Below, in pieces: positions 3,895-20,000 of a DNA stretch of 20,000 nucleotides. Under the pieces are notes generated by a model. The model had not been told where the DNA came from, searched no databases, and saw only the letters and a program-made list of their open reading frames with translations. The DNA comes from an uncultured virus (IMG/VR IMGVR_UViG_3300032296_004100) (lineage: Duplodnaviria > Heunggongvirae > Uroviricota > Caudoviricetes): IMG/VR virus record IMGVR_UViG_3300032296_004100; one strand, written 5' to 3'. Each line of letters starts with the position of its first letter. The stretch's first letter is position 1. A program made the translations under genes and the position numbers.

Positions 3895-4647
3895 TTAATC
3901 TACCAATTTTACCTCAACTGATAATTCTTTGTCTGTTTGACGACTAACAGTATTATAGAGTTTCTCCAACAATCCTGACCTACGAAGGTACTTAAACACC
4001 AAATTTTCATAGGAATATTCCCCCTCTTTTTCGAGTCCCGACTTACGATAATCTTTTAATTTTTTTTTCAGTTTCTCAACTTTCTCTTCGTTGGCTTTGA
4101 GACCTTCTTTTTTGATGTTGGTAATAAGATTCTCTATTTTGTCTTTCCAACCATCGATTTTGGTGGTTAGAACACCTCTTTCGAGTTGTGGTTTTTCTTT
4201 CGAGGGTTTAGAAATCCACTCATCATTTAACACCGAATATACTCCCGAGGCAAAATGCATCTCCTCAGAATCTTGTGGGTATAGTTCAACTTCGTAACCA
4301 AAAATTTTAATATCGTGTTTGTCGTTAAATATCTGTTTTTTAAGACCAAATAAATCTCTGTAAAGTTGAGATTGTTTTCCGAATTGTTTGTAATCGATAA
4401 TAAGATGTAGGTCAAAGTCTGAATATTCTGACCAGTTGTAGTTTGATAAACTACCTGTTAGGACCACATCTTCGACTTCCAAGTCATCTATTAATGTATC
4501 GCCAAATGCTTCGGCAATTTTCATAAGAGCGTCTCTTACTTTTGGTTTAATCACCGCTTCTGAGGCATCGTCATTGTTTTCCCATACCTTTGGGTTAAGG
4601 GTGTCTCTAACAGAGAAGCTCTGAAGTATGGTTGATAGTTGGGCCAT
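3895..4647 (-). CDS. DNA polymerase beta-superfamily nucleotidyltransferase
   Basis: LTGSLSNYNWSEYSDFDLH matches the hG[GS]...DxD signature. A later acidic residue (EVELY) is a candidate third carboxylate. Confidence 0.8.
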   Translation of the reverse strand: MAQLSTILQSFSVRDTLNPKVWENNDDASEAVIKPKVRDALMKIAEAFGDTLIDDLEVEDVVLTGSLSNYNWSEYSDFDLHLIIDYKQFGKQSQLYRDLFGLKKQIFNDKHDIKIFGYEVELYPQDSEEMHFASGVYSVLNDEWISKPSKEKPQLERGVLTTKIDGWKDKIENLITNIKKEGLKANEEKVEKLKKKLKDYRKSGLEKEGEYSYENLVFKYLRRSGLLEKLYNTVSRQTDKELSVEVKLVD

Positions 4648-10374: not shown

Positions 10375-10485
10375 TAGAGTTCTTTGAAATATGGGGGTGA
10401 ACGGTATTGATTGGCAGGGTTAATCATACGGGGCATGCAGTGAGATGTTTCCTATCACTTTAATCTATGGGAGTGCTTTTTAAGT

Positions 10486-10551
10486 GGCAACACTTTTGAA
10501 AAGCTTCAGGCTGTAGGTCTTCTTACAACTGAAGCAGTTACTGTAGCTTAG
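10486..10551 (+). other. tmRNA tag reading frame: (A)GNTFEKLQAVGLLTTEAVTVA*
   Basis: Resume codon GGC follows pk1 and TAAGT. 21 sense codons, then TAG within GTAGC-TTAG-GCTAT. Confidence 0.8.
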
Positions 10552-10781
10552 GCTATAATAACCGTGGGTCGATGGGGACATATACCTTGAAACAGAAGTC
10601 CTTATGGTGTGGTTTCTACCTTAAAAGGAATGGAGGTAATGTTTGGTGTTCTACCGATTTGAGTGAACACCCCACAGTTTCTGATGACGATGGCAAAATA
10701 GGAATCAGATATTTCGGAGGGTTAAACAAACCCTGACCTAAGCATGTAGTCCTTTATGGGTAAACTGAGCAAGACGTGGGT

Positions 10782-10975
10782 TAAAAATCGAGCCCCTTCA
10801 TATCGTGAGATATGTCGAAAATCGGATGAATTCAGGGGAAGTCCTTAGGGATTATCCTGAGCCAAGCCTGGTAGGAACAGGAAGGTGCAGAGACTAGTGG
10901 GTGGTAGACGCTTCTACCGTAATACCACATTAGCGTCCGACATCTTGAAAAAGATGATGATATAGTCCACTTGTG
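10782..10975 (+). mobile_element. Group I intron (194 nt, IC3-like core, no ORF) in the tmRNA T-loop
   Basis: 5' exon ends in U and the intron ends in G. P1 GGGU/GCCC with a U:G at the splice site; P10 UCGA/UCGA; P2 CATATC-GTGA-GATATG; P3 TCGGATG/CGTCCGA; P4 TTCAGG/CCTGAG; GGTGCAGAGACTA...GATATAGTCC (P7 GACTA/TAGTC); P8 CATCTT-GAAA-AAGATG. Removal restores TTCGAAT. Confidence 0.93.
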
Positions 10976-11009
10976 TCGAATCCCACCACCTCCACCGTGG
11001 ACAAATTTG

Positions 11010-11150: not shown

Positions 11151-11321
11151 ATGAAAAACATCATCGCATCTATTTTTGCTGCTGTCGTTTTAACTTCTTG
11201 TGGCGGTGAATCAACAGTTGAAGAAACTGTTATTGACACCACAACTGTTGTTACCGAGGAGGATACCCTTGTAACTGAAGAAGTTGTTGAAACTTCAGGA
11301 GAAGAAGCTACCGCAGAGTAA
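11151..11321 (+). CDS. Small acidic lipoprotein (56 aa); not in supplied ORF track
   Basis: MKNIIASIFAAVVLTSC-GGESTVEETVIDTTTVVTEEDTLVTEEVVETSGEEATAE*: signal peptide with LTSC lipobox, then a Glu/Thr-rich tail. Has its own terminator. Confidence 0.8.
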   Translation: MKNIIASIFAAVVLTSCGGESTVEETVIDTTTVVTEEDTLVTEEVVETSGEEATAE

Positions 11322-13217: not shown

Positions 13218-13293
13218 GCCGAAGTAGCTCAGTGGTAGAGCAGCTTTCGTAAAAGATGGTGTGACGCGATAGGTTCGATTCCTGCCTTCGGCT
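13218..13293 (+). pseudogene. tRNA-Thr-like element with aberrant anticodon arm (CGU-containing)
   Basis: Perfect acceptor GCCGAAG/CTTCGGC, D-arm GCTC/GAGC and T-loop TTCGATT. The anticodon region only forms CTTT-CGTA-AAAG, not a 5-bp stem with a 7-nt loop. Confidence 0.65.
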
Positions 13294-13323
13294 CTTAATT
13301 ACTCAATAAACTATTTATTGATT

Positions 13324-14168: not shown

Positions 14169-14455
14169 TGTTTCCAATCTGAAAATTTTAAACCCCACAT
14201 CAAACTAATCATTGCCATTTCCCTTTCCGCAAGGTGTTTGTTGATTCTAAGATTTTTTCTTATAAATTCAGTACCCCACAACTGCCATTCATCATTTTGA
14301 GCTTTGGTCATTTCCCATTCCTGATACCAAGAATCTTTTCTGTCTTTAATATCCTCGTAAGAAATATTATGACCTGCAATATAAAACATTTTGTTGATTA
14401 GTTCTTCAACAACTTTCTGATTTTTTTCCTGTTTTGATAATCGCTTCTTTGTCAT
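14165..14455 (-). CDS. Hypothetical phage protein
   Basis: 96-aa ORF coupled to both neighbours by overlaps. Confidence 0.75.
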   Translation of the reverse strand: MTKKRLSKQEKNQKVVEELINKMFYIAGHNISYEDIKDRKDSWYQEWEMTKAQNDEWQLWGTEFIRKNLRINKHLAEREMAMISLMWGLKFSDWKQ

Positions 14456-15045
14456 TACATTAAAAATTTTATAATTTTATCCTTTATACCTGATTGCTTT
14501 ATACCTTCCCAAGACCTTGGTGTTTGAACAAAATTACTTAAGCCTGGTTTGTTGTCTGAACCATCTCTGTCAGAAAATTGAGCACTCAAAAAATCTATAG
14601 ACATATCCAAATCATCAACCGCGACCCAATGAGTAATCTCAGGATGAGATTCCAACCAATGTTGAATTTCCATGAATCTTTCTAATTCCAAATCAGCCCT
14701 GAATCTTAGTTTAGCCCATTCAGATGGAAATAAATCTTTAAACATTCCTGTGGTATCTATTGGTCTTTTAATAACACCCTGTGATAAGTAATAATCTCCA
14801 AGTTCCTCAATCGTTGCGTGAAACCTCCAATCTGAACTCACCACATATTCTGCGCCTGTTTTCTCAAGAATTTTGTTGAAAACCTTAATCGCTTTTGGGT
14901 CGAAGTTATCAAATCGAACATATACAGGTAAGTCATTTGCTGATGTACCCATAGTTCTACCCTCTTTGATTTGTTTCTTTCTACGAGAACCCCAGTTCTC
15001 CGCCAAGCAGATTACACCATCATTATCTAAGAATATTACTTTCAT
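14455..15045 (-). CDS. HAD-superfamily phosphatase, 'Swiss Army Knife RNA repair' type (HAD_SAK_2-like)
   Basis: MKVIFLDNDGV (DxDGV), VVSSDWR, ER..EI..WL and WVAVDD motifs. Confidence 0.82.
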   Translation of the reverse strand: MKVIFLDNDGVICLAENWGSRRKKQIKEGRTMGTSANDLPVYVRFDNFDPKAIKVFNKILEKTGAEYVVSSDWRFHATIEELGDYYLSQGVIKRPIDTTGMFKDLFPSEWAKLRFRADLELERFMEIQHWLESHPEITHWVAVDDLDMSIDFLSAQFSDRDGSDNKPGLSNFVQTPRSWEGIKQSGIKDKIIKFLM

Positions 15046-16304: not shown

Positions 16305-17246
16305 TTATATCTGTCCACCTTCAGCCGTATTTGCTTCGGGTTCATATAAATCCACCTCTACTGGGAAATCTCTTAATTCAGTTTGTATTGCTCGGACCAT
16401 TGGAGTTTCTTCCTGATACGACTTTTCAAGCTCTTTATAGAGAGAATAAGAAGTTTGCCACGATTGTTCATTGAGTTGCCTGTTAGTGAAAGAATCTTTT
16501 ACAAACAAAATGTTTTTTATTACATCCATAATCGCATTTGGTAATTCACACAACATGGAATCAACTCTGTCGTCAACCATATTCCAAAAACTTAATTCAG
16601 TGGTACTATCTTTATTTTTTTTATAATAAACCGCTATTTTTTTTCCGTTAATTTTATTGATACAATAGATAAGTTTCCCTTCTTCCGTATAAGAAAAAAA
16701 ATGAGCTTGGTAACTTTCAGAGGATGTACACCATTTAGTACCATAACCATACTTTTGAGATGCCTCGCCCGTGAATGGTCGAACAATTAACCATTCGTCG
16801 TCCTCATAATCTTTTATGGCTTGTTTTTGTAGCTTTTTTGAAATGTTTTTGAGTTGGATTAAACTCATTAACTCTGAAATTTCCGAAATGTCATTGACTT
16901 GTGTGACATCCACACCAGGTAATTGCTTGTTTTCGGTAGCCTCGATGAAATTTAACATCGTTTTAATCAAGTCAGAATCAAAACACCCTAAAAAATGATA
17001 AATCAAAGGGATTTGTTCGTCTGAAATATCTGGCAAAACAACATTATAACCATTACGCAACTCAGTATGAAGGTCGTTTAGATGGCGGGTTTTCAAATTT
17101 CTTTTACTGTAATTCTTCGTGAATAGTTTGACCATTAAAGGTGTAAACTTGTTGGTTTTACTTGGGTCAAGTAACATAATTAAATCCAACAAACTCAATT
17201 TCATGAAATCGGGTGCTTGTTCTACAATTTCAACTCGTTTTGCCAT
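16305..17246 (-). CDS. Conserved phage hypothetical protein, PcfJ-like C-terminal domain
   Basis: WLIVRPFTGEASQKYGYGTKWCTS...F.SY...GKLIY motif. Confidence 0.65.
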   Translation of the reverse strand: MAKRVEIVEQAPDFMKLSLLDLIMLLDPSKTNKFTPLMVKLFTKNYSKRNLKTRHLNDLHTELRNGYNVVLPDISDEQIPLIYHFLGCFDSDLIKTMLNFIEATENKQLPGVDVTQVNDISEISELMSLIQLKNISKKLQKQAIKDYEDDEWLIVRPFTGEASQKYGYGTKWCTSSESYQAHFFSYTEEGKLIYCINKINGKKIAVYYKKNKDSTTELSFWNMVDDRVDSMLCELPNAIMDVIKNILFVKDSFTNRQLNEQSWQTSYSLYKELEKSYQEETPMVRAIQTELRDFPVEVDLYEPEANTAEGGQI

Positions 17247-17320
17247 AATAAAATAATTTATTTAAACATAAGAAATAAAAAAGTCGCAGTCAAAGACTAT
17301 TTATAATAAGTTATTAAAAA

Positions 17321-18274
17321 ATGCCCACAGCTCGTCCTTTTGCTTATAATCCTGGTTCCCCTATTGCTGGAACTGAACAAGTTGGTGATATTGCCGTAGG
17401 TATAACCCCACAAAACTATTCGGGAGGATACGGAGGAGTCCGTTGGTGGAATGGGGCCGACGAAGACTTGGGATACATTATTTGTTATTCAGTTCCAACA
17501 GAGGACCACCCAAGCCCTGACGGACCAATTGCTGGTGTGGGATTTTTTAGGTCAAAATTTTTGACCGAACCATCTTTTATTGAAATTGCAGAATATGTTT
17601 CAAATGGACAAACATTTGCAACAGGAAGTGATGCCAAAACATGGTTGAATTCGAATGGTTATTGGACTTCTTGGCAAGAACCCGCAAATGGGATATTAAC
17701 AAGAGCTGTAGGAGTTTTTGATACTGTCACAGGCTCTACAATAGTAACTTTTTCAAGTTCTACATTCAGTATCTCAGGAAGTTCTTATCTACCTGTATTT
17801 GACGGAGAGTCCAAAGAATTTTCACATGGTGATATCGAAATTGGTGACACTTTAACTATAGGTCTTACAGGTACACCTTTCTATCTAGTCGCTCTAACAA
17901 AAAATTCAACTACATTCCTTCAACAAAGTTTTTGGTATACACCTGAAACTGGCGTCACATTTAACACAGCCGTGAGTACTGGAGATACTTTAACAGTATC
18001 GGTTGCAGTACGAGTTTATGAATATGAAAATCCTGGTATTGGTAGTTCAGCGATTGAGGCATGTAGTTCATATCCTACAATTACTTCGAGTAAATATAGT
18101 GTCTTTCCGTGGGGAGAATGGGGAGATGAATCCTACATATTCAACGACAGTCAATTCACATCCCCATTCACATCATCCTATGTTGCAAATATCGGATTTG
18201 GAACAAGTGCTGTTTATTGGAAAGAAACTGATTCTAACGGTAAGGTCATTTCTCAAGGAACTTGTCCAACATAA
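17321..18274 (+). CDS. Putative virion structural/fibre protein
   Basis: 317 aa, G/S/T/aromatic-rich and beta-like, apparently modular. TATTTATA at 17298-17305. Confidence 0.7.
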   Translation: MPTARPFAYNPGSPIAGTEQVGDIAVGITPQNYSGGYGGVRWWNGADEDLGYIICYSVPTEDHPSPDGPIAGVGFFRSKFLTEPSFIEIAEYVSNGQTFATGSDAKTWLNSNGYWTSWQEPANGILTRAVGVFDTVTGSTIVTFSSSTFSISGSSYLPVFDGESKEFSHGDIEIGDTLTIGLTGTPFYLVALTKNSTTFLQQSFWYTPETGVTFNTAVSTGDTLTVSVAVRVYEYENPGIGSSAIEACSSYPTITSSKYSVFPWGEWGDESYIFNDSQFTSPFTSSYVANIGFGTSAVYWKETDSNGKVISQGTCPT

Positions 18275-18644
18275 ACTTTCTGAGTTACCCTTTTCGGATT
18301 TCGTAAAAAAATATAAAGGTGAATATCCATTTTATCACAATCCACAGGAAATGGATTATGTTGAGCATAGTAAAAATAAAAAAATAAAAAAAATAATTCG
18401 TCAAGAAAACTTATATGATGACTTAACATCAATTGAATTCATAAATGGGAACGAAAATTTATTAGAAAAAAAACTTATCGATATCAAAAATAAAGTTAAA
18501 GTTTATAGAGGTGGAAAAATAAAAAAACTGGTGGATGGAAATCTTTATGATGAAGATTTAGCCAACATTATTTATTATAACAGAAGAAAATTTTTTGAGT
18601 TTGGTGGTTACGAAAAAGATTCTTGGATAAATTTAAAATATTAA
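18275..18644 (+). pseudogene. 5'-truncated sulfotransferase-family-like gene remnant
   Basis: FSDFV...HNPQEMDY...IIRQENLYDDL...LYDEDLANII......FEFGGY resembles the C-terminal half of Sulfotransfer_2 proteins. The N-terminal part of the listed ORF is the alternative frame of the upstream gene. Confidence 0.5.
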
Positions 18645-18648
18645 AAAG

Positions 18649-18752
18649 GCGTCGGGGTAGGAATCCCACCTACAATCGAGAACAACCTAAGATAGGTCTT
18701 GATGTTCTCCATCCAAAAATGGATGTGCCTTTGTCAATTCAGCCACCCGACT
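18649..18752 (-). ncRNA. tRNA-like element (AGTYRGG family) without anticodon loop
   Basis: GTCGGG/CCCGAC acceptor; D-arm-like GCTGAATTGACAAAGGC; CATCCA-TTTT-TGGATG; long arm GAGAACA...TGTTCTC; T-like arm GTAGG-TGGGATT-CCTAC. Confidence 0.7.
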
Positions 18753-18761
18753 AACCTATTT

Positions 18762-19304
18762 TTAATTTTTACCTGCACATTCAGTAACAACAAATCGTTC
18801 ACCAAATAATACGGGTGTTACCTCATGAAATAAACTACCTTTATAAAGAATTGCCATCCCCTTTTCTTTGGGCGTTATCACATCGTTGATAATTAACTCT
18901 CCACCTTTAAAGTTATCATTTAACATCAATGTCATAACCCATTCTCTATTAAATGAGGGGATAAAATCCTTGTGTTTAGTGTGTTTACCACCCAAAGGAT
19001 AATGAGTAAAATAATGTGGGAATTCCAAAATAAAATTTGTAAGAATACACCCAAAACATTTTGAAAAAATATCCGATAGAAAAGGTAAATCATTTTTTTT
19101 TATCCCAACAATATCAACAACTCTATTCGGAGCATTTATTCTTGTAATAGATTTTGAAGTAGTGTCCCACACATTTTTATCAATATCAATAAAAGAATTA
19201 AAACTATTCCAAAAGTTTAAAACACTTTGAATTTCATCATTAGAAATCACATTTCGGATTATTTTGAAATCACCATAGTCTTCTATATTTTTACAAATAT
19301 CCAT
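18762..19304 (-). CDS. 2OG-Fe(II) oxygenase
   Basis: HKD (HxD), LNDNFKGGEL and FHEVTPV..GERF (distal His and 2OG-binding Arg). Confidence 0.88.
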   Translation of the reverse strand: MDICKNIEDYGDFKIIRNVISNDEIQSVLNFWNSFNSFIDIDKNVWDTTSKSITRINAPNRVVDIVGIKKNDLPFLSDIFSKCFGCILTNFILEFPHYFTHYPLGGKHTKHKDFIPSFNREWVMTLMLNDNFKGGELIINDVITPKEKGMAILYKGSLFHEVTPVLFGERFVVTECAGKN

Positions 19305-19333
19305 TTGAAATTGTTTTGTAAATAATAAATTAA

Positions 19334-19495
19334 TTATTTTTTTTCTTCAATTTGAGACTCCATCAATTCAATTGCCTTTTTTAAGTGATTAACATAAAAA
19401 GGTATGTCAAATTTGTCTTCCTTTCCATATGATTTAACTGAATCTTGAACATATTTCAGTTCCCAAAGTATTTCATTTACGGTTTCTTTTGTCAT
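19334..19495 (-). CDS. Small hypothetical protein (53 aa); not in supplied ORF track
   Basis: MTKETVNEILWELKYVQDSVKSYGKEDKFDIPFYVNHLKKAIELMESQIEEKK*. Confidence 0.6.
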   Translation of the reverse strand: MTKETVNEILWELKYVQDSVKSYGKEDKFDIPFYVNHLKKAIELMESQIEEKK

Positions 19496-19511
19496 AATTT
19501 AATAATTTAAG

Positions 19512-19581
19512 TGGTCCGTGCGGGAATTTAAATCCCCACATCCGTTATCGGGCTATATTATAGCCGTTAAAGGAACGGGCC
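19512..19581 (-). pseudogene. Highly degenerate tRNA-like element
   Basis: Acceptor GGCCCGT/ACGGACC plus A; T-arm remnant GGGGA-TTTAAAT-TCCC; total length 70 nt. Internal arms are poor. Confidence 0.45.
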
Positions 19582-19669
19582 TTTGGTTAATGATAAGAAA
19601 TAGTTTCAAAGAAAGCTATTACCATTTTTTTTAAAAATAATTTAATTTTTTCCATATTAATAAGTATAG

Positions 19670-19747
19670 CAGTCAGGACAGGACTCGAACCTGCAATACC
19701 GGTTTGCCCATTCTTAGGGTACGTCTATCCAATTCCGCCACCTAACT
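19670..19747 (-). ncRNA. tRNA-like element (AGTYRGG family) with non-canonical anticodon arm
   Basis: AGTTAGG/CCTGACT; Leu-like D-arm GCGGAATTGGATAGACGT; CCC-TAAGAAT-GGG (no U33); GCAGG-TTCGAGT-CCTGT. Confidence 0.75.
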
Positions 19748-19751
19748 AAAT

Positions 19752-19853
19752 TTATAGTATTCCTCTTTGAACTAAATCAAGTATAACTATACCAAGTATA
19801 CCCCCGATAAAAAGTCCTAATAGGAAACCATTCCACCATTTTTCATTTTTCAT
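19752..19853 (-). CDS. Small single-TM protein (33 aa)
   Basis: MKNEKWWNGFLLGLFIGGILGIVILDLVQRGIL*. Start reassigned to 19853 because the longer listed ORF overlaps a tRNA-like element. Confidence 0.55.
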   Translation of the reverse strand: MKNEKWWNGFLLGLFIGGILGIVILDLVQRGIL

Positions 19854-19870
19854 AACTTCATTAATTTTAG

Positions 19871-19998
19871 TAGTCAGGACAGGATTCGAACCTGTATTGT
19901 ATTGTAAGTGAAAAACACCCATACATTTAGTATCGTAATTCATAACATACGACCTGTTCTTGTATAAATCTAAGCGTCTACCATTCCGCCACCTGACT
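19871..19998 (-). ncRNA. tRNA-like element (AGTYRGG family) with a 78-nt insert replacing the anticodon/variable arms
   Basis: AGTCAGG/CCTGACT plus A; D-arm GCGGAATGGTAGACGC; ACAGG-TTCGAAT-CCTGT. The middle has no canonical anticodon stem-loop. Confidence 0.78.
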
Positions 19999-20000
19999 AT

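Follow-up and report, generated by a model that had tools for sequence, protein, structure and literature searches.

Phages have been known to carry tRNA-like stable RNAs since the early work on T4 and T5, and these RNAs have stayed unexplained. RNA1 and RNA2 of T5 (AY543070, 30501-30644 and 32959-33083) are annotated as 'tRNA-like stable RNA with unknown functions', and in T4 (AF158101) the small stable RNAs rnaC (species 1 RNA, 70908-71046) and rnaD lie directly after the tRNA genes. Generic tRNA-like candidates, but not the family that we describe here, have been reported from IMG/VR (PMC10690425).

We analysed a 20,000-nt stretch of an uncultured Caudoviricetes virus from a lake (IMG/VR record IMGVR_UViG_3300032296_004100), hereafter the window, in which three tRNA-like elements, A, B and C, lie close together. 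A and B belong to a family that is very large among phages and barely described, while C belongs to another.

Results

Three tRNA-like elements without a credible anticodon arm

The original prediction placed three elements on the minus strand of the window, and all three were confirmed at these positions:

19871-19998, minus strand: element A, 128 nt, matched by the family model R1 and by the Rfam tRNA model
19974-19998, minus strand: 5' frame of A, comprising the acceptor 5' strand and a Leu-type D arm
19896-19973, minus strand: middle of A, 78 nt
19871-19895, minus strand: 3' frame of A, comprising the T arm, the acceptor 3' strand and A73
19670-19747, minus strand: element B, 78 nt, with an A-type frame and a middle of about 26 nt
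18649-18752, minus strand: element C, 104 nt, with a frame of its own, two inner hairpins and a T run after it

The three middles (78, about 26 and 53 nt) are mutually unrelated, as predicted. Each element has the acceptor, D and T arms of a tRNA but lacks a credible anticodon arm; a canonical one, with a 5-bp stem, a 7-nt loop, U33 and a purine at 37, is absent from A, B and C. The head of B is a variant with T at position 4, and its position 73 is G. The frame of C consists of a 6-7-bp acceptor, a 3-bp D stem and a T stem whose loop is unusual in having G at positions 55-56; C lies at the end of a minus-strand unit, before the T run and opposite a convergent ORF.

A scored 39.2 bits and B 31.9 bits against the Rfam tRNA model (RF00005), exceeding its gathering score of 29 bits only by way of their acceptor, D and T arms; the aligned part of A is confined to these arms and leaves a 69-nt unaligned insert. 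C had no Rfam match up to E = 10. ARAGORN, which had been expected to return pseudo or undetermined calls, left A uncalled in default mode and called B tRNA-Ser(aga). In that assignment the called stem is poor, with an A.C mismatch, position 33 is A, the D arm is of Leu type and there is no long variable arm. At the place of the called anticodon loop, the closest relative of B (L043) has a 5-nt loop.

The minimum free energy fold of A retains the acceptor, D and T arms (z = -1.3), and the fold of B has z = -0.6. The fold of C is a cloverleaf that contains two inner hairpins (z = -3.1; 1 of 200 shuffles equally stable), the first of which has 5-6 bp and a 4- or 6-nt loop in the window.

A large phage family with a nearly invariant frame

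When scored with R1, a model of the A/B frame, ordinary tRNAs did not exceed 39.7 bits, whereas A reached 61.3 bits and B 65.6 bits. The family numbers at least 164 distinct copies, which come from 140 or more IMG/VR stretches; members score 43-75 bits, and ordinary tRNAs at most about 40 bits. A and B are thereby members of a large phage family whose Leu-type frame hardly varies: at each of 12 frame pairs the commonest pair occurs in 84-100 of 100 sequences, an invariance that is partly built in because copies were collected by way of an exact 21-nt pattern at the 3' side. A73 is present in 150 of 164 members, A among them. The D arm of A is nearest to the canonical tRNA-Leu of these phages (mean score 9.5; other isotypes at most 4.5), and the D arm is retained in roughly 80-85% of copies; some members consist of acceptor and T arm only.

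The middles are far more diverse, 123 of 164 being singletons, with 17 clusters of related middles. A strict anticodon arm (5-bp stem, 7-nt loop, U33, R37) stands at the canonical place in 2 of 164 members, which upholds the proposal that these are non-decoding tRNA mimics. The further suggestion that they act as decoys for anticodon nucleases is disfavoured because anticodon-loop-like hairpins are no commoner than expected by chance (6 of 164 members; shuffles gave 6.6 +/- 2.5). Default ARAGORN nevertheless assigned an anticodon to 26 of 94 elements; among seven calls that we inspected, six fell on family elements, all with poor stems or a wrongly placed loop.

Copies number 1-11 in 48 of the 50 viral records examined. 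Every record at least 90% complete (11 of 11, 33-476 kb) has copies; complete genomes of 33-34 kb hold one copy each, and ARAGORN called no tRNA in the 20 kb of them that were examined. Solitary copies sit tightly between co-directional ORFs and point the same way. More generally, 66 of 82 elements have another tRNA or element no more than 300 nt away, 81 of the 82 being on the same strand as that neighbour, and arrays reach nine elements with gaps of 49-200 nt, several of which contain no ORF. The family occurs in lakes and other habitats.

No canonical cellular tRNA with the A/B 3' frame was found among 185,579 species genomes, and a BLAST search of window positions 17000-20000 against a cultured-phage collection gave no match. 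Across seven multi-copy loci (140 kb), no Rfam family other than tRNA overlapped any element; GOLLD and tmRNA lie elsewhere in one of these loci. The claim that this is not a named family holds for Rfam, and gives way where T5 RNA1 and RNA2 and T4 rnaC are concerned, these being old annotated analogues.

Flanks, turnover and selection on the middles

The elements are flanked as tRNAs are. T precedes the element at position -1 in 137 of 163 cases, compared with 201 of 294 genuine tRNAs of the same loci, and C follows at position 74 in 161 of 164, compared with 292 of 294.

In two phages that are 94-99% identical over about 8 kb, the frames stay and the middles are replaced, moved or duplicated. 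One of the two has nine elements, of which three have their middles in place in the other phage (one only partly), one has its middle at another slot and five have no counterpart. One middle appears to recur in a different tRNA frame, on a reading by eye of unaligned sequences. Two relatives of the window, G001 and G003, are 91% identical to it over 18644-19525 and have neither A nor B in the syntenic stretch.

In the 17 middle clusters, inspection by eye revealed paired substitutions. Together with covariation in C (below), they show that the middles are under structural selection and are not junk.

Element C is a separate lineage

The original prediction had treated the three elements as one family. 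R1 gave C only 27.3 bits, which is within the range of ordinary tRNAs, so C is not a member of the A/B family and the grouping is unsupported; C is a separate, smaller family that shares its overall plan with A and B and resembles them at its head and tail. Among its 15 distinct homologues, 95.6% of cells are paired, and seven pairs are changed on both sides, a count reached by 0 of 500 shuffles. These changes fall in hairpin 1 (three of six pairs), the variable-arm stem (three of seven) and acceptor pair 1-72 (one). The loop of the first hairpin measures about 3-6 nt among the homologues, which bears out for C as well the view that these elements do not decode.

Neighbouring genes and partner searches

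The surroundings of the elements are made up of short ORFs, one enzyme gene and a further structured stretch:

19752-19853, minus strand: small hydrophobic ORF of 33 codons, directly after A, recognised from its translation
19587-19655, minus strand: small ORF of 22 codons, directly after B
19518-19592, minus strand: hairpin-rich stretch between a 53-codon ORF and the 22-codon ORF, fold z = -2.3
18762-19304, minus strand: 2OG-Fe(II) oxygenase gene (Pfam PF13640, E = 1.2e-8), between the small ORFs and C

Both A and B are thus followed by a small ORF within about 20 nt. The 33-codon ORF has a counterpart with an 82%-identical peptide in a second viral record (L215/L083), where it lies 21 nt downstream of a family element whose middle is not that of A; the 22-codon ORF is 91% identical in G002, there too after a family-type element, and 81% identical in two metagenome contigs. 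The oxygenase gene is 86% identical in G001 and G003. The hairpin-rich stretch has no R1 match and so is not a family member; the corresponding site in G001 is occupied by a tRNA-like gene of 98 nt whose D loop carries an insert.

Annotated neighbours that recur across 42 loci of about 20 kb are DUF932, HNH, VanY, GAF, cREC_REC and metallophosphatases, with HNH endonuclease genes nearby in six of the 42 loci and also in the window. A CCA-adding enzyme head domain was found in 2 of 51 viral records and TROVE in 1 of 51. A scan of the region for sigma-70 promoters and terminators gave chance-level counts. When the middles of A, B and C were compared, antisense or sense, with the window and 37.5 kb of relatives (57.5 kb), nothing exceeded chance; the best match was a 13-nt stretch of C on the same strand (E = 0.03).

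RNA-library contigs

A and C are present with their own middles in RNA-library contigs, an expression hint that comes from contigs of four runs, two of them only guessed to be RNA, and with DNA carry-over possible. In contigs from environmental runs, agreement with A breaks off at 19895-19898 and resumes at 19969-19983. Every joint across the middle carries other letters in place of those of A, so these contigs represent other family members and not splicing. The outcomes named beforehand as speaking against the original prediction were not seen: the RNA-library contigs contain no spliced form, and the overall pattern is not one of uniform decay. In three lake or freshwater runs the elements are covered and the 2OG oxygenase gene and 18300-18641 are not, and in a marine run a single 241-nt contig falls on the oxygenase gene; as these are contigs only, the difference in coverage is not evidence of differential expression.

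Discussion

We favour, with a probability of roughly 0.45, a reading in which the frame causes host tRNA maturation to excise and stabilise a small RNA whose exchangeable working part is the middle. The constant parts of A and B, namely the acceptor stem, D arm, T arm and the flanking T(-1) and C74, would make the transcript a substrate for the host's tRNA-maturation enzymes; RNase P cleavage at the 5' end, 3' trimming and CCA completion would then leave a compact, stable RNA. The middle, standing in for the anticodon and variable arms so that decoding would be impossible, may act in trans on some RNA or protein, probably in conflict between phage and host or between phages. Because the frames are nearly identical between copies, they could serve in addition as recombination arms by which middles are swapped, duplicated and lost. 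C would work in the same mode as an independent lineage with its own frame. Of the roles originally proposed, a stable scaffold with a variable payload is the best fit, given the tRNA-type flanks, the compensatory changes in the middles and the swapping of middles. Counting against this reading, a search for a dedicated protein partner in the 42 loci found no cluster in more than 10 of them, the middles of A, B and C have no significant antisense match in the 57.5 kb compared, default ARAGORN calls an anticodon in 26 of 94 elements, and the D arm, kept in most copies, may not be needed for processing alone. Taken together, the middles exceed flanking DNA only marginally in stability (mean z -0.60 versus -0.38, p = 0.03), and the folds of A and B have z-scores of no more than -1.3 and -0.6. 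A bolder extension, which we regard as possible though doubtful, is a natural phage RNA cassette system in which the tRNA-Leu-like frame would be both excision signal and homology arm for exchanging small RNA modules in very great variety, whether decoys, aptamers or guides, for use against hosts or competing phages. At the RNA level, such a system would correspond to integron cassettes or CRISPR arrays.

The frame might instead be the working part, a proposal that we consider unlikely. The elements would then be leucine-tRNA mimics that are bound, and perhaps charged, by the LeuRS of the host or by some other tRNA-binding factor, and the middle would serve just to block decoding and stay folded. 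The anticodon and variable arms of tRNA are dispensable for leucylation by the E. coli LeuRS, and it is these parts that vary here; the Leu-nearest D arm of A, the prevalence of A73, retention of the D arm in most copies and a frame conserved far beyond the needs of pairing all suit such a mimic. It fits poorly with G73 in B, with members reduced to acceptor and T arm, with middles that recur in subfamilies and are under structural selection, and with the many different middles kept in one phage. Nor does any canonical cellular tRNA in the species genomes share the 3' frame, and Leu/Phe-tRNA protein transferase is found in 0 of 51 viral records, which bears only on that downstream use. Rather less likely is that the fold is punctuation, marking RNase P/Z cuts that separate and stabilise small-ORF mRNAs, with C closing a transcription unit. 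The ORFs just downstream of A and B, the 33-codon ORF following an element in a second phage too, the T run and convergent ORF at the end of C, the tight fit of solitary elements between co-directional ORFs and the tRNA-like flank signals are what it would predict. A cut site, however, has no need of middles of up to about 140 nt with covariation, and both the arrays of up to nine elements with several ORF-free gaps and the chance-level promoter and terminator counts speak against punctuation.

Fast gain, loss and relocation between near-identical phages, nearby HNH endonuclease genes, the lack of A and B in G001 and G003 and the weak stability of the middles would also be expected of decaying or selfish tRNA-Leu copies, functionless RNAs whose ends are kept alike by gene conversion in recombination-prone tRNA clusters. 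Decay, however, should not spare a 50-nt frame and positions -1 and 74 while the rest is replaced; with compensatory changes in the middles, and single copies kept in complete 33-34 kb genomes without nearby tRNA genes, we judge this explanation improbable, somewhat more so than punctuation. The last alternative, that each middle is an intron which interrupts a tRNA gene and is cut out to yield a normal tRNA, is very improbable. The intron mode of ARAGORN can force models for A and C, and a group I intron does lie elsewhere in the window (10772-10988); the models were rejected because homologues disagree, C being read as Lys(ctt) in the window and as Leu(taa) in G001. Middles of 20-80 nt are too short for self-splicing, anticodon-arm-like hairpins are at chance level and the joints across the middle of A in the RNA-library contigs carry replacement letters, while an Rfam search of 18300-20000 (E up to 10) gave, tRNA aside, no family at half its gathering score and no intron match.

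The T5 and T4 tRNA-like stable RNAs are the closest known systems, analogous in architecture and not sequence relatives. Like the window elements, T5 RNA1 and RNA2 lie in a phage tRNA gene region, on the tRNA strand, and have an acceptor-like closing helix and T arm with a multi-hairpin middle in place of the anticodon arm. RNA1 has a Leu-type D arm, and the T-arm sequence of RNA2 is identical to that of A and B; their acceptor sequences differ from those of A and B, and against R1 RNA1 has no match at E up to 1 and RNA2 a partial one of 25.5 bits, a score that ordinary tRNAs also reach. Stability is part of the annotation of the T5 RNAs, whereas expression of the window elements is hinted at by contigs. 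T4 rnaC has a canonical T arm and closing helix at its end and a large structured middle (z = -4.6); unlike A and B, rnaC and rnaD have another frame without a Leu-type D arm and are single copies, and we know of no family of exchangeable middles for them.

Canonical tRNA-Leu (class II; RF00005) resembles A in its acceptor, Leu-nearest D arm, T arm, A73 and tRNA-type flanks, but A and B have neither an anticodon arm nor a regular variable arm. The absence of an anticodon arm below a tRNA upper body is common to the window elements, tmRNA and the bacterial Y RNA YrlA. For tmRNA, the interval 18300-20000 gave only a partial permuted-tmRNA match (12.1 bits, E = 9.5; gathering score 47 bits). YrlA differs in having its RNA ends on the opposite side of the tRNA-like module, and its Ro/TROVE partner occurs in only one of 51 viral records.

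Set against these systems, the A/B family indicates that tRNA-like stable RNAs are not peculiar to two laboratory phages, spanning as it does phages of 33-476 kb, its frame conserved down to single nucleotides and its middles showing cassette-like turnover. There is a consequence for annotation: the elements appear in Rfam searches as low-scoring tRNAs, and roughly one in four receives an arbitrary anticodon from ARAGORN, which inflates phage tRNA counts and the codon-usage inferences built on them. In engineered tRNA scaffolds and tRNA-gRNA arrays, the body of a tRNA directs the cell's tRNA-processing enzymes to cut out an inserted RNA and shields it, and several RNAs can be freed from units in tandem. 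Those constructs are artificial, whereas A and B are natural, phage-borne and diversified, with processing that is predicted; if their middles are working modules, the family would be a large and as yet unused collection of natural small RNAs, and nature would have anticipated tRNA-scaffold engineering.

A run of tRNA-like elements at the window's end

The window is phage DNA (36% G+C) that encodes five ordinary-looking tRNA genes and a ClpB-like ATPase, and lake water is the main source of the DNA runs that contain the stretch. The three minus-strand tRNA-like elements without an anticodon arm that the original prediction described are real; in each, here called A, B and C, a frame of acceptor, D and T arms surrounds a middle; in A and B the middle replaces the anticodon and variable arms.

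Features at the end of the window, in order of the minus strand
19998-19871, minus: element A, first in the run
directly after A, minus: 33-codon hydrophobic ORF
19747-19670, minus: element B, after the 33-codon ORF
directly after B, minus: 22-codon ORF
19518-19592, minus: hairpin-rich stretch between the 22-codon and 53-codon ORFs
between the hairpin-rich stretch and the oxygenase gene, minus: 53-codon ORF
between the 53-codon ORF and C, minus: 2OG-Fe(II) oxygenase gene
18752-18649, minus: element C, last in the run, with a T run and a convergent ORF beyond it

The nearest viral record is G001, a viral contig of 74 kb with an assigned completeness of 25%; it is 91% identical to window positions 18644-19525, and A and B are missing from it across a syntenic 18 kb. 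The slot of the hairpin-rich stretch is occupied in G001 by a 98-nt tRNA-like gene (L001 2371-2469, minus) whose D loop contains an inserted hairpin of ~21 nt, whose anticodon arm is irregular, and which occurs also in another viral record, G002 (L004 2742-2839; Rfam tRNA 37-41 bits); a conserved structured stretch of ~150 nt adjoins tRNA-Leu in both G001 (L001 2560-2715) and G002. Elsewhere in the window, a tRNA-shaped gene (13218-13294, plus) has a normal frame (Rfam 37.7 bits) and a 6-nt anticodon loop, from which ARAGORN reads a two-base anticodon, 'aa'; it recurs in G001, G003 and G002 (37.7, 37.7 and 35.3 bits), and a further tRNA of G001 has a loop of 8 nt ('ctta'). A full-model group I intron match (10772-10988, plus; 77.4 bits) flanked by short ORFs (10572-10736 and 11151-11321) suggests a split gene. 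The window also encodes an RNA-repair-type HAD domain of the 'Swiss Army Knife' class (14455-15045, minus; E = 5.8e-20), and 3895-4647 (minus) weakly matches a nucleotidyltransferase. In other phages, genes for cREC_REC and metallophosphatase are found repeatedly near elements.

A and B belong to a Leu-framed phage family

A degenerate 21-nt pattern taken from the T arm and acceptor 3' strand of A and B matched at least 140 IMG/VR stretches, and the matches listed yielded 164 distinct elements of 54-191 nt (mean 105 nt). Because this sample is anchored entirely on an exact 3' match, frame invariance is partly built in; the first 18 positions, on which the search placed no constraint, are nearly fixed among the 164 listed, and position 73 is A in 150, G in 10 (including B) and T in 4. 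A model of the frame, R1, built from 42 members, gave A 61.3 bits, B 65.6 bits and two copies in G002 68-70 bits, with a ceiling of 39.7 bits for ordinary tRNAs. C scored 27.3 bits, within the range of ordinary tRNAs, and the proposal that all three form one family is not supported: C is a family of its own. R1 matches (E <= 1e-7) numbered 1-11 per record in 48 of 50 viral records, and were present in each of the 11 records with a completeness of 90% or more; the sizes of the records span 33-476 kb.

In a model-based sample of frames (103 matches, 100 distinct), frame pairs were 99.7% paired, the commonest pair occurred in 84-100 of the 100 sequences, and 7 of 12 pairs changed on both sides. 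Frame conservation thus exceeds the needs of structure alone and is consistent with sequence-specific recognition or gene conversion. The D arm of A aligned best to these phages' canonical tRNA-Leu (mean 9.5; next isotype 4.5). Among 185,579 prokaryote species (one genome each), the 21-nt pattern matched only 30 stretches, nearly all short MAG contigs and many labelled Bacteroidota; none was a canonical tRNA-Leu with the A/B 3' end, indicating that the frame was not copied from a known cellular tRNA. The sole match in an isolate genome, a Hymenobacter montanus contig (L163), looks like a 5' tRNA part with a CCT anticodon loop fused to the T arm and acceptor 3' end typical of the family, which resembles the outcome of a mobile-element insertion into a tRNA gene. 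ARAGORN finds no tRNA there.

Other structured RNAs were seen near family members. In record G033 (L209), a GOLLD RNA (17386-17790, plus; 316.7 bits) and a tmRNA gene (17971-18365, minus; 98.2 bits) share 20 kb with four elements, and a near-threshold freshwater-1 motif in G002 (L004 2573-2635, minus; 66 bits, gathering score 72) sits among tRNA-like elements.

Most family members lack an anticodon arm

A strict anticodon arm (five standard pairs, 7-nt loop, U33 and purine 37) occupied its canonical position in 2 of the 164 elements listed, both 71-nt tRNA-Lys(UUU)-like genes with the family's acceptor and T arm; anywhere in the middle it occurred in 6 of 164, against 6.6 +/- 2.5 in shuffles. 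These counts support the predicted non-decoding tRNA mimics. Contrary to this reading, 26 of 94 elements (42 loci) received an anticodon from default ARAGORN; the assignments spread over many amino acids, and of seven calls inspected, the six that were family elements had stems with 1-3 mismatches or, once, a T-arm-like hairpin. B itself (31.9 bits against Rfam tRNA) is called Ser(aga), a call flawed by an A.C stem mismatch, A33, a Leu-type D arm and a variable region of only 10 nt; its closest relative, L043, which has B's head variant and shares the 3' portion of its middle, carries a 5-nt loop where B has its called anticodon loop. A received no default ARAGORN call and matched Rfam tRNA (39.2 bits) through its acceptor, D and T arms only, with 69 nt skipped; its MFE fold retains the three frame helices, the 78-nt middle forming hairpins (z = -1.3). 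If middles were spliced out to give normal tRNAs, joined frames would be expected; contigs of four RNA-labelled runs held no joint marking clean removal of A's middle. ARAGORN's intron-mode models, which make C Lys(ctt) in the window and Leu(taa) in G001, were not credible.

Middles are selected, yet turn over like cassettes

The A/B middles are under selection, yet show cassette-like turnover. As a class, their stability only slightly exceeds that of downstream DNA (mean z -0.60 versus -0.38, p = 0.03), and by eye the differences between related middles appear to be paired substitutions in stems. Among the 164 listed, 123 middles were singletons and the other 41 fell into 17 clusters of 2-4. 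Two records, G008 and G026, share ~8 kb of tRNA region at 94-99% identity; of nine G008 elements, three keep their middle at the same G026 slot (identity 1.00, 0.95 and 0.68), one has it at a different slot (0.97) and five have no counterpart (at most 0.61). One middle is present twice in G026, and at two slots the middle is replaced while the flanking tRNAs are conserved. In another phage, an 82%-identical version of the 33-codon ORF that lies downstream of A follows an element whose middle is different, and the middle of a ~135-nt tRNA-like element in G002 (L007, about 10410-10545, minus), whose acceptor and T arm differ, appears (by eye, unaligned) inside an A/B-type frame in viral contig L092. 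In nine of the 42 loci ARAGORN calls no tRNA within 20 kb, and in complete 33-34 kb genomes one element is wedged between co-directional small ORFs; such solitary copies speak against simple decay within tRNA clusters.

C is a separate structured family

No Rfam family matched C even with E relaxed to 10. Its fold is a cloverleaf containing two inner hairpins (z = -3.1). A 22-nt piece of its D region retrieved 3 stretches from viral records and 20 from metagenomes, and these yielded 15 distinct sequences of full length. In their alignment 95.6% of cells pair and seven pairs change on both sides (three of six in hairpin 1, three of seven in the variable-arm stem, and acceptor pair 1-72), covariation reached by 0 of 500 shuffles (slid controls, 0-3). 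The stem of hairpin 1 is 4-7 bp long and its loop about 3-6 nt, so this hairpin is not an anticodon arm. The T loop has G at 55-56, the D loop lacks the GG pair, and a T run follows C in the window, G001 and G002.

Hints of expression, probable maturation and a proposed scaffold with payload

Contigs from four RNA-labelled runs, two of them only presumed to be RNA, hint at expression: a freshwater metatranscriptome contig spans 19870-20000 and differs from the window once, a 131-nt contig of a separate study spans 19870-19999, and a 115-nt contig spans 18646-18752. Many further contigs match only A's two frames, with other letters between, and represent other family members. A sigma-70 promoter and terminator scan of the region gave chance-level counts.

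The flanks resemble those of tRNAs. At position -1, T is present in 137/163 elements and in 201/294 canonical tRNAs encoded at the element loci; at position 74, C is present in 161/164 and 292/294, respectively. Canonical tRNA genes of the 42 loci almost always encode C74 but not CCA (A75 in 192/294, A76 in 224/294). A neighbouring tRNA or element lies within 300 nt of 66/82 elements, on the same strand for 81/82, at a median gap of 134 nt. Bacterial RNase P prefers U(-1). From these flanks and surroundings, together with that preference, we infer that the elements would be matured by the tRNA pathway.

The predicted role as a scaffold displaying a variable payload, in which the frame would recruit tRNA-maturation machinery and the middle would be an exchangeable working part, is the best-supported mechanism, though unproven; we put it at slightly below even odds (about 0.45). 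Sense and antisense matching of the three middles over the window and 37.5 kb of relatives gave nothing above chance (the best, a 13-nt same-strand match of C, had E = 0.03). In the neighbourhoods of 42 loci no protein cluster recurred in more than 10, and among candidate partners looked for in 51 viral records, Leu/Phe-tRNA protein transferase was present in none, the CCA-adding enzyme head domain in 2 and TROVE in 1. Rfam over seven multi-copy loci (140 kb) found only tRNA matches overlapping elements.

Comparison with known phage stable RNAs

We found no description of the A/B family in the literature searched; one paper reports tRNA-like candidates of a generic kind in IMG/VR (PMC10690425). 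Phage T5 has three annotated tRNA-like stable RNAs of unknown function, RNA1, RNA2 and RNA3, inside its tRNA region, and T4 has rnaC and rnaD. T5 RNA1 and RNA2 and T4 rnaC, but not rnaD, fold around a multi-hairpin middle, with a T arm and a closing helix; the D arm of RNA1 is Leu-type, and the T arm of RNA2 is identical to that of A. R1 does not group the T5 and T4 RNAs with A and B, and by this model they appear to be analogues rather than sequence relatives. A/B-type elements extend an old, unexplained kind of phage RNA.
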